DNA from: Candidatus Omnitrophota bacterium
GTDB lineage: Bacteria; Omnitrophota; Gorgyraeia; Gygaellales; Profunditerraquicolaceae
Reading direction: 5' to 3'
Assembly (NCBI GenBank): GCA_016208765.1
Contig: JACQXK010000071.1
Location: 22,429 to 86,428, forward strand
DNA length: 64,000 nt
The notes under the pieces were generated by a model. It saw only the letters and a program-made list of their open reading frames with translations. It did not search any database and had not been told where the DNA came from. Of this stretch, positions 8,945 through 28,804 are shown piece after piece (within the stretch, counting starts at the first letter, position 1; every line of letters starts with the position of its first letter). The position numbers were made by a program, and so were the translations under genes.

Positions 8945-9277
8945 TTAATGGTTCTTACGAGACGCAAAAATGAAATTGAAAAAATACTTTCTGAGAGACT
9001 CATCTGTAAATTTAAACTGGTTATCTCCTGTAAAATAACCCACGATTGCTTCTCGTAAACGGGCAATTTCTTTTAGGCGGGCAAAATTCTTTGTGCTATC
9101 TAAAGTCAAATCTATCAATTCAAGAGCGCGCTCAAAAGCCTGCTGCGCATATTCGGAATTGTTTTTTGACTGCCAGTTAAGGGCACGCTCAACCTCACTG
9201 CCGATATTTGCCATCTGCTCAATAAAAGACAGCTGATCCCAGCGTCCTGCTGCAAGGTTTTTATGCTGATAACTCAT
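8945..9277 (-). CDS. hypothetical small helical protein
   Basis: 110 aa; 4-nt start/stop overlap with upstream small gene (translational coupling). Confidence 0.4.
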   Translation of the reverse strand: MSYQHKNLAAGRWDQLSFIEQMANIGSEVERALNWQSKNNSEYAQQAFERALELIDLTLDSTKNFARLKEIARLREAIVGYFTGDNQFKFTDESLRKYFFNFIFASRKNH

Positions 9278-9615
9278 CTTTTAATCCATTTATTGACTAC
9301 GTTTACTATCTTGTTCCGGATAATCTCATTTTCAACGCCCCTGCTCTTATTCCCACGAGACGGACGCAAATTAATCATAGAGTCAAATTCAATAAACTCA
9401 TCGCCTTGCAATTCCGGATAAAAGTTGGTCCCCCAAAGACTATGTTGTTTTGAGCCATTTTCTAAAAGCAACGCCTCTAAATCTGGGTGCAGTTCAGCGT
9501 CAAGAGCAACAAGCTCCCTGTCCACATCCACAACTGCCTTTACAAGATTTCCAAAAGTATCCGTAGCCAATTGCTTAAGTTCATTAAGCGAAATAATCTC
9601 AATAATTATTTTCAT
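9274..9615 (-). CDS. DUF5674-like small protein
   Basis: ISLNELKQLA..FGNLVKAVVDV..ELHPDLEALLLENGS..LWGTNFYPE..EFDSMINLRP..N(K)SRGVEN pattern recalls DUF5674 family (from memory). Confidence 0.4.
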   Translation of the reverse strand: MKIIIEIISLNELKQLATDTFGNLVKAVVDVDRELVALDAELHPDLEALLLENGSKQHSLWGTNFYPELQGDEFIEFDSMINLRPSRGNKSRGVENEIIRNKIVNVVNKWIKR

Positions 9616-9711
9616 ACGCTGAATTATATCTCAAACAAAAGCTGCCTGCAACCAAATTTTACAAAAATTCGTTTGACTGAGTAGCTATTTAAGGTAAAAT
9701 ATTTAAACTAT

Positions 9712-9981
9712 TCCCCCTTAGCTCAGTCGGTAGAGCGAGTGGCTGTCAAATTGGCAGCTTCCGTGGGAAACCACGGTTGAAACTGCAGGAGAATTGCTGG
9801 AAGTCCTTACGGGATAATCAGCAGCCGAGCCCGCCGTTAAATTTTCGGCGAGGAAGGTTCAGAGACTATGCACCTGCTGCCTAAAGCGCAAGCTACGGTA
9901 AAGATATAGTCCACTTCCGAAAGTAATTTCGGGTTAAGTGTAACCACCAGGTCCGAGGTTCGAGTCCTCGAGGGGGAGCCA
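9712..9981 (+). tRNA. tRNA-Asn(GUU) gene interrupted by a group I intron in the anticodon loop (exons 9712-9746 and 9941-9981, CCA encoded)
   Basis: Exons fold into a cloverleaf: acceptor tccccct/aggggga, D-arm gctc-agtcggta-gagc, anticodon arm agtgg-ctGTTaa-ccacc (G34U35 from the 5' exon, U36 from the 3' exon), variable loop aggtc, T-arm cgagg-ttcgagt-cctcg, discriminator G + CCA. Confidence 0.8.
9747..9940 (+). ncRNA. group I self-splicing intron (194 nt, cyanobacterial tRNA-Leu-intron-like core)
   Basis: Exact R element GTTCAGAGACTA (9858-9869) and S element AAGATATAGTCC (9901-9912); P-like AATTGCTGGAAG and Q-like AATCAGCAGCC; P1 gctgt|c pairs with IGS ggcagc giving U·G at the 5' splice site; intron ends in G (9940). 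Confidence 0.8.
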
Positions 9982-9983
9982 TA

Positions 9984-10028
9984 AATAATACCCAGCTGAT
10001 TATTTATCAGCTGGGTATTATTATTTAA
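9984..10028 (+). terminator. rho-independent terminator after tRNA
   Basis: Perfect 15-bp stem aataatacccagctgat / atcagctgggtattatt with loop tattt, followed by a T-rich tract. Confidence 0.6.
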
Positions 10029-13644: not shown

Positions 13645-15269
13645 TACCTGTCTTCTTTCACCACTCTGCCATTAAACATATCAAGGGCGGATTTAACAAA
13701 AGGATGATTCAACCCTTCTTCTTCCTGCACTACCTCGTCGGAAAGATTAAAATTAACGCGCAGCCTGGACTTTAAAATATCAAAAAGCGCCTTTTCAATT
13801 ATAGCGCGGTTATCTTTTGATTCAAGCGCCTCTTTATGCAAGGAGCAGTTCATCGGGAAGCTCACAGTTAAGGTTGCTCCCTTTAATTTCATTGGCTGCC
13901 CCTCATCTAAATAAGTCGCCACTGACATTTTTATAGTACTAAGCCCTGATACAATACTTTTCCAACCCGCCCTTATTTCTTCAAGGGTTATATTTACATC
14001 AGCATCAGCCGCAGAGTCTTCTATAGGAGCATCTTTCCGGGGCTTGATAGCAGTGGATTCTTTTTGCGGAAGAACAACATTTCTTTTATCTATATGCTGT
14101 TTTTCTGATTTCTCCGCAGGCGGCTGCATGGGACGCTCTGTGTTTTTTTGCAACACAGGAGCAGCAATATTAGCTTGTGGCTTTTTTTCACAGCTCAAAC
14201 GGACCAGGTTTACCTCCAACCCGATACGTAGGGAATCAAAACGCCTCGCCATGTCCTGAGTATTAGCTAAAATATTAAACGCGCTAAATATCTCATCCAG
14301 GCTAAGAGCCCGGCTTTGCTCTAAAAGTTTTACACATATATCTTCAGGTAAATCAATAAGTTTTGCATCAGCCTTACTAACCTTGGCAATCATAAGGTTG
14401 CGAAAATGCTCAATTAAATTCGTCAAAAAAACATTTATATCTTTTCCCTCGTCAATTAATTTATTTAATAACGCTAACGCTGCCTGCGGGTCATGTTTAA
14501 TGATCCGTTCTGTAATCTCAAAGAGAACTTCCTGCTCAACCAACCCCAGCACGGAAATTACGTCTTTTAAAGAAATTTTCTGCTGGGAAAATGAAACCAG
14601 CTGGTCCAAAACTGACTCAGCATCCCTTAAAGAGCCGTCGCTAGATTTAGCAATGGCGAATAAAACCTCTTTATCCACATTTATTTTCTCAGCCGTAACA
14701 ATACGCTCAAGCTGAGACGCTATTTCACGGGCAGTGATCCTGCGAAAATCAAAACGCTGGCAACGCGAAAGTATTGTCGGAAGGACCTTGTTTGGATTAG
14801 TGGTGGCAAAAATAAATTTAACAAACTCCGGCGGCTCCTCAAGTGTCTTTAAAAGCGCGTTAAATGCCTCTGTTGTAAGCATATGCACTTCATCAATAAT
14901 ATAGATCTTGAACTTACCCGAGGTAGGAGCAAATTTAACATTTTCCCGCAAGACCCTGATTTCATCAATCCCGCGGTTTGAAGCGCCGTCAATTTCAATC
15001 ACATCAAGGCTGCGGCCTTCACTGATTTCCTTACAGGATGCGCATTGCTGACAAGGATTTGCTAATAGGCCGTCCTTGCAATTAAGCGATTTAGCCAGTA
15101 TCCTGGCGCAGGAAGTCTTGCCCACTCCGCGCGGCCCGGCAAACAGGTAGGCATGCGCCAAGCGGTTCTTCTGGATGGCATTTTTTAAAACACCGGTGAC
15201 ATGAATTTGCCCGACAACTTCATCAAAGTTTTTCGGGCGCCATTTTAAGGCAAAAACTGTATAAGACAT
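13644..15269 (-). CDS. dnaX: DNA polymerase III subunit gamma/tau
   Basis: AAA+ clamp-loader motifs GPRGVGKTS, zinc module CxxC, box VII SRC (SRCQRF). Confidence 0.9.
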   Translation of the reverse strand: MSYTVFALKWRPKNFDEVVGQIHVTGVLKNAIQKNRLAHAYLFAGPRGVGKTSCARILAKSLNCKDGLLANPCQQCASCKEISEGRSLDVIEIDGASNRGIDEIRVLRENVKFAPTSGKFKIYIIDEVHMLTTEAFNALLKTLEEPPEFVKFIFATTNPNKVLPTILSRCQRFDFRRITAREIASQLERIVTAEKINVDKEVLFAIAKSSDGSLRDAESVLDQLVSFSQQKISLKDVISVLGLVEQEVLFEITERIIKHDPQAALALLNKLIDEGKDINVFLTNLIEHFRNLMIAKVSKADAKLIDLPEDICVKLLEQSRALSLDEIFSAFNILANTQDMARRFDSLRIGLEVNLVRLSCEKKPQANIAAPVLQKNTERPMQPPAEKSEKQHIDKRNVVLPQKESTAIKPRKDAPIEDSAADADVNITLEEIRAGWKSIVSGLSTIKMSVATYLDEGQPMKLKGATLTVSFPMNCSLHKEALESKDNRAIIEKALFDILKSRLRVNFNLSDEVVQEEEGLNHPFVKSALDMFNGRVVKEDR

Positions 15270-26892: not shown

Positions 26893-26930
26893 TAAATATT
26901 TAGATTGGCGGCCCGACCATCAATGTTCCC
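26893..26930 (-). terminator. rho-independent terminator (minus strand)
   Basis: Hairpin ccgccaa…ttggcgg followed by T-run on minus strand, downstream of gene 26999-27682. Confidence 0.5.
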
Positions 26931-26998
26931 TCTAGAAATGTCTTTTCATTTCCAGACCACTTATTATGCATAATTATCTTATTTCATTTTAGCGCATT

Positions 26999-27924: not shown

Positions 27925-27931
27925 AAAACTA

Positions 27932-28020
27932 CGGAGAGGCTGGGATTTGAACCCAGGGACCCAGTTTCCCAGGTCAACTCATTAGCAGTGAGTTGCTTTC
28001 GACCACTCAGCCACCTCTCC
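27932..28020 (-). tRNA. tRNA-Ser(GCU)
   Basis: Minus-strand GGAGAGGTGGCTGAGTGGTCGAAAGCAACTCACTGCTAATGAGTTG + long variable arm + GGTTCAAATCC T-arm; anticodon loop ctGCTaa; no encoded CCA. Confidence 0.85.
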
Positions 28021-28133
28021 GAAAAATTTTTAATGTAAAAATTTTTTGGCACTTGAGAAACGGGTTTCATTAATGAAACCCGCGACGAAAGTGCCTAAAA
28101 TAATTTATGTCAAAATTAATTCTTCTTTCCCGC

Positions 28134-28625: not shown

Positions 28626-28653
28626 AATGCAGGCCTATTTTATTTGAAATTAA

Positions 28654-28727
28654 TGCGCCCAGCAGGAATCGAACCTGCAACAACCAGCTCCGTAGGCTGA
28701 TGCTCTATCCAATTGAGCTATGGGCGC
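28654..28727 (-). tRNA. tRNA-Arg(ACG)
   Basis: Minus-strand GCGCCCATAGCTCAATTGGATAGAGCATCAGCCTACGGAGCTGGTTGTTGCAGGTTCGATTCCTGCTGGGCGCA; anticodon loop ctACGga. Confidence 0.85.
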
Positions 28728-28804
28728 AATGATCCTTTACACAAGAGTAATAATTTTACCACAACCAGGCATGAAATAAAACTTAAATTTCTCCCTGTGA
28801 CCGG

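Follow-up and report, generated by a model that had tools for sequence, protein, structure and literature searches.

A compact group I intron inside the anticodon of a tRNA-Asn(GUU) gene from a Candidatus Omnitrophota bacterium

Gene organization and predicted product

The DNA described here, referred to as the window, is a stretch of 64,000 nucleotides (nt) from a Candidatus Omnitrophota bacterium (assembly GCA_016208765.1, contig JACQXK010000071.1, positions 22,429 to 86,428 of the forward strand). Positions 9712-9981 of the window very probably hold a tRNA-Asn(GUU) gene that is split between U35 and U36 by a compact group I ribozyme without an endonuclease gene, and from which the mature tRNA would be obtained by splicing. 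The locus is a further member, in a new host phylum, of an intron class that has been published; the phenomenon itself is known.

When the segments 9712-9746 and 9941-9981 are joined they form a 76-nt tRNA-Asn(GUU), and ARAGORN identifies the sequence spliced in silico as tRNA-Asn(gtt). This agrees with a preliminary description of the window, which had proposed a tRNA-Asn(GUU) with a 194-nt group I intron in the anticodon loop and whose coordinates are exact. The insertion point lies between nucleotides 35 and 36, inside the anticodon. The gene consists of three parts:

9712-9746 (+): 5' exon, 35 nt, TCCCCCTTAGCTCAGTCGGTAGAGCGAGTGGCTGT; tRNA-Asn positions 1-35, comprising the 5' strand of the acceptor stem, the D arm, the 5' strand of the anticodon stem and C32 U33 G34 U35
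9747-9940 (+): group I intron of 194 nt that begins directly after U35 and ends with the terminal G9940 (ωG); matched by RF00028, supported by covariation, without an open reading frame (ORF)
9941-9981 (+): 3' exon, 41 nt, TAACCACCAGGTCCGAGGTTCGAGTCCTCGAGGGGGAGCCA; tRNA-Asn positions 36-76, comprising U36 A37 A38, the 3' strand of the anticodon stem, the variable loop, the T arm, the 3' strand of the acceptor stem, G73 and an encoded CCA

The spliced product contains the canonical tRNA nucleotides U8, A14, G18G19, U33, GTTCGA, U1-A72, G73 and CCA. Its predicted junction (...GGCUGU/UAACC...) occurs uninterrupted in at least 120 metagenome contigs, and all 116 of these that are callable by ARAGORN are called tRNA-Asn(gtt). 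Among the metagenome matches listed, the best uninterrupted tRNA-Asn genes agree with the predicted product at 65/73 positions; no allele that lacks the intron but has the same exons was found, none of the at least 120 uninterrupted genes listed being more than 89% identical. A pattern describing the split gene has one match in the window and none in 100 shuffles, which is well beyond chance. ARAGORN reports no tRNA at the locus in its default mode. In intron mode it reports tRNA-Thr (tgt) i(34,194), in which the 194-nt insert is shifted upstream by 2 nt.

Structure of the intron

The Rfam model RF00028 (Intron_gpI), a search proposed in the preliminary description, matches positions 9737-9933 over its full length (model positions 1-253) with 80.8 bits (gathering threshold 50) and E = 6e-19. 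The alignment ends at G9933 because the model stops after P9. An ORF search in all frames of 9747-9940 found none of useful length, as expected from the earlier statement that the intron is too short to encode a homing endonuclease. The fold, modelled manually from P1 to P9, is given below in order of position:

9742-9746 / 9754-9758 (+): P1, exon G9742-U9746 with the internal guide sequence G9754-C9758; wobble U9746·G9754 at the 5' splice site
9747-9753 (+): L1, CAAAUUG, 7 nt; the place at which an HNH ORF is inserted in relatives
9761-9776 (+): P2 (9761-9766 / 9771-9776), hairpin CCGUGG / CCACGG with the GAAA tetraloop L2
9783-9789 / 9873-9879 (+): P3, 5' strand and 3' strand, from the Rfam alignment and the fold model
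9794-9799 / 9819-9824 (+): P4, formed by the classical P and Q elements; encloses P5
9803-9806 / 9812-9815 (+): P5, inside P4
9825-9826 / 9856-9857 (+): P6, from the fold model; variable periphery
9830-9836 / 9846-9853 (+): P6a, from the fold model; variable periphery
9857-9868 (+): R element, GTTCAGAGACTA
9862, 9864-9867 / 9908-9912 (+): P7, 5' strand (9862-9867) in R and 3' strand in S, with A9863 bulged
9880-9898 (+): P8, hairpin with a GCAA loop, read from the sequence
9901-9912 (+): S element, AAGATATAGTCC
9913-9916 / 9936-9939 (+): P9.0, encloses P9 and ends right at ωG9940
9917-9922 / 9927-9932 (+): P9, hairpin with a GUAA loop
9940 (+): ωG, terminal G of the intron at the 3' splice site

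The letter-perfect R and S elements and the P/Q-like elements noted in the preliminary description are thus present, the latter as P4, and so are the U·G pair that ends P1 and the G that ends the intron.

The fold was examined in a MAFFT alignment of 71 ORF-less introns, namely that of the window and 70 related ones. Standard pairs occupy 79.9% of the pair cells, against 62.9% when shuffled (0/500 shuffles reach the observed value), and only 32-47% of the cells are paired when the partners are slid. The covariation score of the fold is 0.441 vs 0.148. Many double changes are seen across P2, P4 and P9, and P7 is invariant (5/5 pairs in 71/71 introns). In P2, 96.9% of the cells are paired and 6/6 pairs are changed on both sides; in P4 the three inner pairs are formed in 100% of cases and are swapped completely from one core type to the other. 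P9 is 88% paired, and P6 and P6a are 69-70% paired with numerous compensatory changes. The pairing of P3 is just 63%, which is attributed to an offset of its 5' strand by one column between two core types in the MAFFT alignment, as judged by inspection. At all invariant and all at least 90%-conserved columns the window has the consensus base; therefore nothing suggests a disabled core.

Both splice sites are covered by the same comparison. The P1 pairs UG, GC, UA and CG (U35·G, G34-C, U33-A and C32-G) are each present in 71/71 introns. The P9.0 pairs nearest P7 and nearest ωG are formed in 100% and 99% of the sequences, respectively, and they covary (AU64 GU4 GC3; CG53 UA9 AU5 UG3). Among 110 reconstructed introns, all end in G, and at least two of the three pairs adjoining ωG are present in 109. 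Covariation among the 71 introns hence supports the P1-P9 fold and both splice sites predicted for the window copy. A P10 helix is possible in the window (U9941·G9753, A9942-U9752 and A9943-U9751).

The pair G9864-C9911 of P7 is the presumed guanosine-binding pair, by analogy with Tetrahymena and Azoarcus. GNRA loops are read on P2, P8 and P9. P8 contains the internal loop CCUAAAG...CUACGG, which appears to resemble the 11-nt GAAA-tetraloop receptor known from the Azoarcus intron; this receptor-like motif suggests, again by analogy, a contact between L2 and P8. A P7.1/P7.2 domain between P7 and the 3' strand of P3 is a hallmark of subgroup IA. In the window the gap between R and the 3' strand of P3 is 5 nt (9868-9872), and the hallmark domain is absent.

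Proposed splicing

We infer that the window copy is a catalyst of its own splicing. The gene would be transcribed as a single unit into a precursor tRNA-Asn(GUU) carrying the 194-nt intron, which would fold into P1-P9 after transcription. The guide sequence G9754-C-A-G-C9758 would pair with exon nucleotides G31-C32-U33-G34-U35 and present the wobble U35·G9754. A free guanosine, bound at G9864-C9911, would attack at this wobble; P9.0 would then bring the terminal G9940 to the same binding site, and the exons would be ligated. The expected product is a mature 76-nt tRNA-Asn with the anticodon GUU.

An endonuclease-bearing intron in a sister genome

The closest relative of the window intron occupies the same site in a sister Omnitrophota genome, represented by one contig from ENA (L122) and one from JGI (L123), in which CorA is 88% identical to the CorA of the window. 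Both contigs contain the same tRNA-Asn gene with exons identical to those of the window and the same junctions. The intron of the sister genome measures 556 nt and shares 92.5-93% identity with that of the window in the ribozyme core. The extra sequence sits in the P1 loop and encodes a protein of 107 amino acids (aa) at L123 1923-2243 (-), whose TTG start codon follows GGAGGTGA. The stop codon of this ORF is the UGA of J2/3, and the last codons therefore overlap P1' and P2. The protein contains the motifs CxxC...EFHH...CANCHRELH and matches HNH endonuclease families of PHROG with E = 1e-28 and 3e-26; Pfam finds HNH at E = 0.01 only, below the threshold. The HNH proteins of other introns have 74-99% identity to this protein if they belong to the Omnitrophota type and 46-70% if they belong to copies from the candidate phyla radiation (CPR). 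Since L1 of the window has 7 bases and the L1 of the sister genome bears the HNH gene, the window copy is the endonuclease-less form of the same mobile intron, one for which we infer homing.

The tRNA-Asn gene is inverted relative to CorA in the sister genome. On the JGI contig a gene for a 615-aa large serine recombinase (L123 156-2003, +) abuts the 3' end of the tRNA and, as called, overlaps the tRNA on the opposite strand. On the ENA contig the tRNA is separated from CorA by an rve-family transposase (L122 1801-2376, +). The tRNA-Asn gene of the sister genome is thus a site at which mobile elements cluster. Synteny could be followed through CorA only to this 88% orthologue; loci at 72-75% CorA identity had other neighbours and no tRNA-Asn.

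The published class and its distribution

Introns in tRNA-Asn are already in the literature, which does away with the novelty implied by the preliminary description, whose list of four classical host tRNAs is older than these papers. [quoted passage not shown] (PMC13011429) state that tRNA-Asn 35/36 is catalogued there as 'Asn.4Ug'. The 35/36 introns of tRNA-Asn were described in detail by Nakagawa, Amikura, Omae and Suzuki (mSystems 2026, PMC13011429; bioRxiv July 2025). In that study in vitro self-splicing and sequencing of the ligated tRNA were reported for one Patescibacteria tRNA-Asn 35/36 intron, with splicing blocked in a mutant with ωG changed to C, and in vitro self-splicing was also reported for a tRNA-Asp intron at the same site. 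Twenty-eight 35/36 introns were recorded among 4,934 complete genomes (Patescibacteria 19, Cyanobacteriota 3, Nitrospirota 3, Bacillota_A 1, Bipolaricaulota 1 and Pseudomonadota 1), and 25 of the 28 were assigned to subgroup IA (PMC13011429). HNH genes were found in four Patescibacteria tRNA-Asn introns, and HNH-bearing 35/36 introns are stated only for Patescibacteria; Omnitrophota is absent from the text and appears once in Table S5, with a tRNA-fMet 33/34 intron labelled IC3 (PMC13011429). A literature search combining Omnitrophota or Omnitrophica with introns returned nothing relevant.

A scan of 185,579 species-representative genomes with a pattern consisting of the S element, a gap, GTAA and the tRNA 3' half gave at least 120 loci. 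Among the 120 matches listed, to which the following counts refer, at least 107 were reconstructed as tRNA-Asn(GUU) genes split at 35/36; of the rest, 2 show a sequence like exon 1 some 545 nt 5' of S, 6 are cut by the edge of the contig or of the retrieved segment and 5 are unclear or false. By record label the reconstructed loci are Patescibacteria/CPR 63, Omnitrophota 13, Gammaproteobacteria or proteobacterium 13, unlabelled 8, Planctomycetales 5 (with exons of the Omnitrophota type), Bdellovibrionales 4 and Bacteroidia 1. At least about 20 loci are of the Omnitrophota type. The first exon is 34 nt long in the CPR type and 35 nt in the Omnitrophota type, where it is identical or near-identical to that of the window; it is identical in several other Omnitrophota-type loci. 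The exons of loci labelled 'Gammaproteobacteria' (L132, L144, L152 and others), 'Bdellovibrionales' (L170, L173, L217, L226) and 'Planctomycetales' (L138, L172, L191, L222, L230) are of the CPR type or of the Omnitrophota type, and some automated taxonomic labels of metagenome-assembled genomes (MAGs) may be wrong. No native tRNA-Thr and no intron-less tRNA-Asn was found in the 26 Omnitrophota-type loci examined.

The intron lengths range from 184 to 618 nt. Those of the Omnitrophota type begin with the 194 nt of the window, the shortest of this type, continue through about 200-430 nt and end at 533-618 nt, the longest carrying the HNH ORF. The ribozyme of the window aligns throughout with the intron of the Nitrospirota genome GCF_900169565.1 (Table S5 of PMC13011429) and with the 63 CPR-labelled introns. 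A rough neighbour-joining tree of 190 core columns, drawn without bootstrap, has two clades, one with most CPR introns and the other with a single Omnitrophota clade as sister to a CPR subset; the sister group of the window clade is a minority CPR core type, and the majority type stands apart. At the place of P7.1/P7.2, between R and the 3' strand of P3 (alignment columns about 340-380), some 47 nt are inserted in L232, L235, L197, L153, L198, L194, L180 and L183, which are Uhrbacteria and MAGs labelled 'Gammaproteobacteria'; the Omnitrophota clade and most CPR introns have no such insert.

A viral reservoir was also looked for. The split-gene pattern had 0 matches in IMG/VR, and blastn gave no match in INPHARED. 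A looser pattern on viral contigs (tRNA-Asn D arm, CTGT and a non-T base) gave at least 120 matches, nearly all of them ordinary tRNA-Tyr(GUA), and was discarded. On the 167-kb viral contig IMGVR_UViG_3300031994_000013 (L083), ARAGORN, run in intron mode, places a tRNA-Asn(gtt) with an insert of 68 nt at 13914-14129, within a phage tRNA array; this insert was rejected as a group I intron, being too short and having no RF00028 match. A match to the Rfam skipping-rope RNA (51 bits) directly follows the call.

Alternative interpretations

Several observations weigh against a splicing-competent tRNA-Asn gene. P3 contains a U·U mismatch (U9784/U9878), which is conserved across the Omnitrophota clade, and A27·C43 is mismatched at the top of the tRNA anticodon stem. 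Inspection of the alignment shows no conservation of the bases 5' of the guide sequence, and hence none of P10. The window intron has no P7.1/P7.2, a domain found in its IA1-labelled relatives, and activity is therefore not simply transferable from them. Lastly, the only other public assembly of the genome breaks at both splice junctions: in the Logan assembly of SRR12113406, one contig (L370) ends at window position 9747, another (L001) starts at 9941, and the intron is on neither. These breaks suggest heterogeneity at the locus in that sample, for which spliced RNA, a different variant of the intron, a further copy of the gene or an allele lacking the intron are candidates. A de Bruijn graph would break at 9941 if TAACC... 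also occurred in the sample after a base other than the G of the intron, as it could in spliced RNA, in a further gene copy or in an allele lacking the intron; the break at 9747 falls one base beyond the position expected on this account.

Such observations lend themselves to an alternative in which the intron is a decayed, non-splicing relic and the locus a tRNA pseudogene, the work being done by another, intron-less tRNA-Asn. The missing homing endonuclease gene, the missing P7.1/P7.2 domain and the P3 mismatch could all be read as decay, a second tRNA-Asn gene could lie outside the 64-kb window, and the Logan breaks hint at a second sequence with shared exons. All invariant and nearly invariant core positions are intact, however, and all helices are kept, with compensatory changes, in P2 among others, when compared with the sister intron, which is 93% identical. 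The exons, the promoter block and the encoded CCA are conserved, and the same arrangement recurs in at least about 20 Omnitrophota-type species. Moreover, ORF-less introns are the majority of the functional tRNA introns in the published survey (PMC13011429). A relic is considered improbable on this evidence, and a functional split tRNA-Asn gene is preferred.

The ARAGORN call in intron mode corresponds to a tRNA-Thr(UGU) gene with the intron at 9745-9938, between positions 33 and 34. In this register, too, the last base of the 5' exon is a U (U9744) and that of the intron a G (G9938), and the anticodon loop CUUGUAA has 7 nt. U9744, however, is paired with A9756 rather than with a G in 71/71 introns, the wobble U·G being at U9746, and G9938 lies inside the covarying P9.0; among the 110 introns the shifted register is largely without pairing (0-2 of 3 pairs). 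U1-A72 and G73 are typical of bacterial tRNA-Asn, and G1-C72 is a tRNA-Thr identity element; the tRNA body of the window is of the former kind. Uninterrupted genes with the Asn junction are called tRNA-Asn in 116/116 cases. The same 2-base mis-call by ARAGORN and tFind was documented by Nakagawa et al. and refuted by sequencing the spliced product (PMC13011429). The tRNA-Thr(UGU) call is thus a documented artefact, contradicted by the position of the P1 wobble and the register of P9.0, and a true tRNA-Thr gene is very improbable here.

It is more improbable still that a foreign intron was joined chimerically into the contig during assembly or binning. The source is a MAG, and the independent Logan assembly of SRR12113406 carries the intron on neither flanking contig, yet the same exon-intron-exon arrangement with exact junctions is present in more than 100 independently assembled genomes, the syntenic sister genome was recovered by two projects (ENA and JGI), and the guide sequence is complementary to the anticodon loop of its own gene. 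A tmRNA, already set aside in the preliminary description, is rejected, as ARAGORN reports none.

Genomic surroundings

The genes flanking the tRNA-Asn(GUU) gene are ordinary chromosomal ones (DUF5674, a CBAH-family hydrolase, CorA, ABC-F, RecR and DnaX). The neighbouring CorA is 100% identical to one 'Candidatus Omnitrophica bacterium' protein, and its best homologues have the same label. Other features of the window are:

8945-9277 (-): gene for a 110-aa protein without a family match, adjoining the DUF5674 gene
9274-9615 (-): gene for a DUF5674 protein (Pfam E = 4e-36), directly 5' of the tRNA gene
9673-9700 (+): promoter-like site TTGACT, 16 nt, TAAAAT (10/12 in a consensus scan), ending 11 nt 5' of the tRNA
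9984-10022 (+): perfect 17-bp hairpin, AATAATACCCAGCTGAT / ATCAGCTGGGTATTATT, 3 nt past the CCA of the tRNA
26902-26959 (-): Rfam nhaA-I riboswitch match, 39.8 bits, barely over the gathering threshold of 37
27931-28021 (-): uninterrupted tRNA-Ser(GCU)
28653-28728 (-): uninterrupted tRNA-Arg(ACG)

Judged from its sequence, TTGACT-16-TAAAAT is a putative promoter of the tRNA gene, and the block containing it is also kept before the gene of the sister genome. The 17-bp hairpin may be a terminator or a processing signal. A terminator scan near the tRNA gene gave no match; it did not flag the hairpin because no T-run follows it. The pair of uninterrupted tRNA genes recurs in several Omnitrophota-type loci.

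Significance

What is apparently undescribed so far is the Omnitrophota host, the HNH-bearing copies outside Patescibacteria and the absence of P7.1/P7.2. A recently described intron class is thereby extended to another candidate phylum, with HNH copies not confined to Patescibacteria. The scan suggests that the class is much commoner in draft genomes, with at least 107 species representatives vs 28 in 4,934 complete genomes. The sister pair with and without the ORF, together with the graded lengths (194-618 nt), illustrates the cycle of gain and decay that is usual for homing endonucleases, and the understanding of group I introns is unchanged.

As standard tRNA finders miss the gene or call it tRNA-Thr, Omnitrophota MAGs will seem to be without tRNA-Asn, which affects completeness estimates; the same annotation problem has been raised for Patescibacteria.

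A broader proposal is put forward tentatively: an Omnitrophota-wide 35/36 intron lineage may have been spread by an HNH endonuclease shared with Patescibacteria, may have shed P7.1/P7.2 and yet be active, and may interrupt the only tRNA-Asn gene of its hosts. All of this together is possible and doubtful at present. If true, it would mean that genes have passed between two phyla of ultra-small, host-associated bacteria, that the lineage is a minimal form derived in nature from IA-type ribozymes, and that its hosts need self-splicing to decode Asn codons.

Comparison with known introns

The Patescibacteria 35/36 introns share with the window intron the host gene, the insertion point CUGU|...G|UAA, the GCAG guide and the S element. 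The cores are alignable (53-79% identity to the CPR copies found among the matches listed), the lengths are similar (184-894 nt in the published set, 184-618 nt among the matches listed), and ARAGORN mis-calls both as Thr(UGU) 33/34. Some members carry an HNH endonuclease, 46-70% identical between Omnitrophota and CPR. The differences are the host phylum, Omnitrophota, and the presence of HNH copies also in Omnitrophota-type genomes.

The Nitrospirota IA1 intron of GCF_900169565.1 has a near-identical string from the internal guide sequence through P2 to J2/3 (GCAGCTTCC..GGAAAC..GGTTGAAAC), and it agrees with the window intron in the type of P, Q and R, the site and the layout of P9.0 and P9. 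It differs, as do the introns of Uhrbacteria and other relatives, in having about 47 nt between R and the 3' strand of P3, which the window and the Omnitrophota clade lack.

The compact anatomy of the window intron is presumably Azoarcus-like, which is offered as a lead only. The IC3 introns of Azoarcus tRNA-Ile(CAU) and cyanobacterial tRNA-Leu(UAA), the classical tRNA introns of bacteria, are likewise about 200 nt long, lie in the anticodon loop and have no ORF; a GAAA-capped P2, a P8 receptor resembling CCUAAG/UAUGG, a GNRA-capped P9 and a P9.0 that delivers ωG are presumably further likenesses. The tRNA is a different one, and the site at 35/36 differs from 36/37 in Azoarcus tRNA-Ile(CAU) and 34/35 in cyanobacterial tRNA-Leu(UAA). 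In addition, the published subgroup models put the nearest relatives of the window intron in IA, not IC (PMC13011429).

The endonuclease of the present lineage is of the HNH family, and the I-Ssp6803I of the Synechocystis tRNA-fMet intron is PD-(D/E)XK; the window copy itself has none. Like this and other endonuclease-bearing tRNA introns, the present lineage exists both with and without an endonuclease gene.

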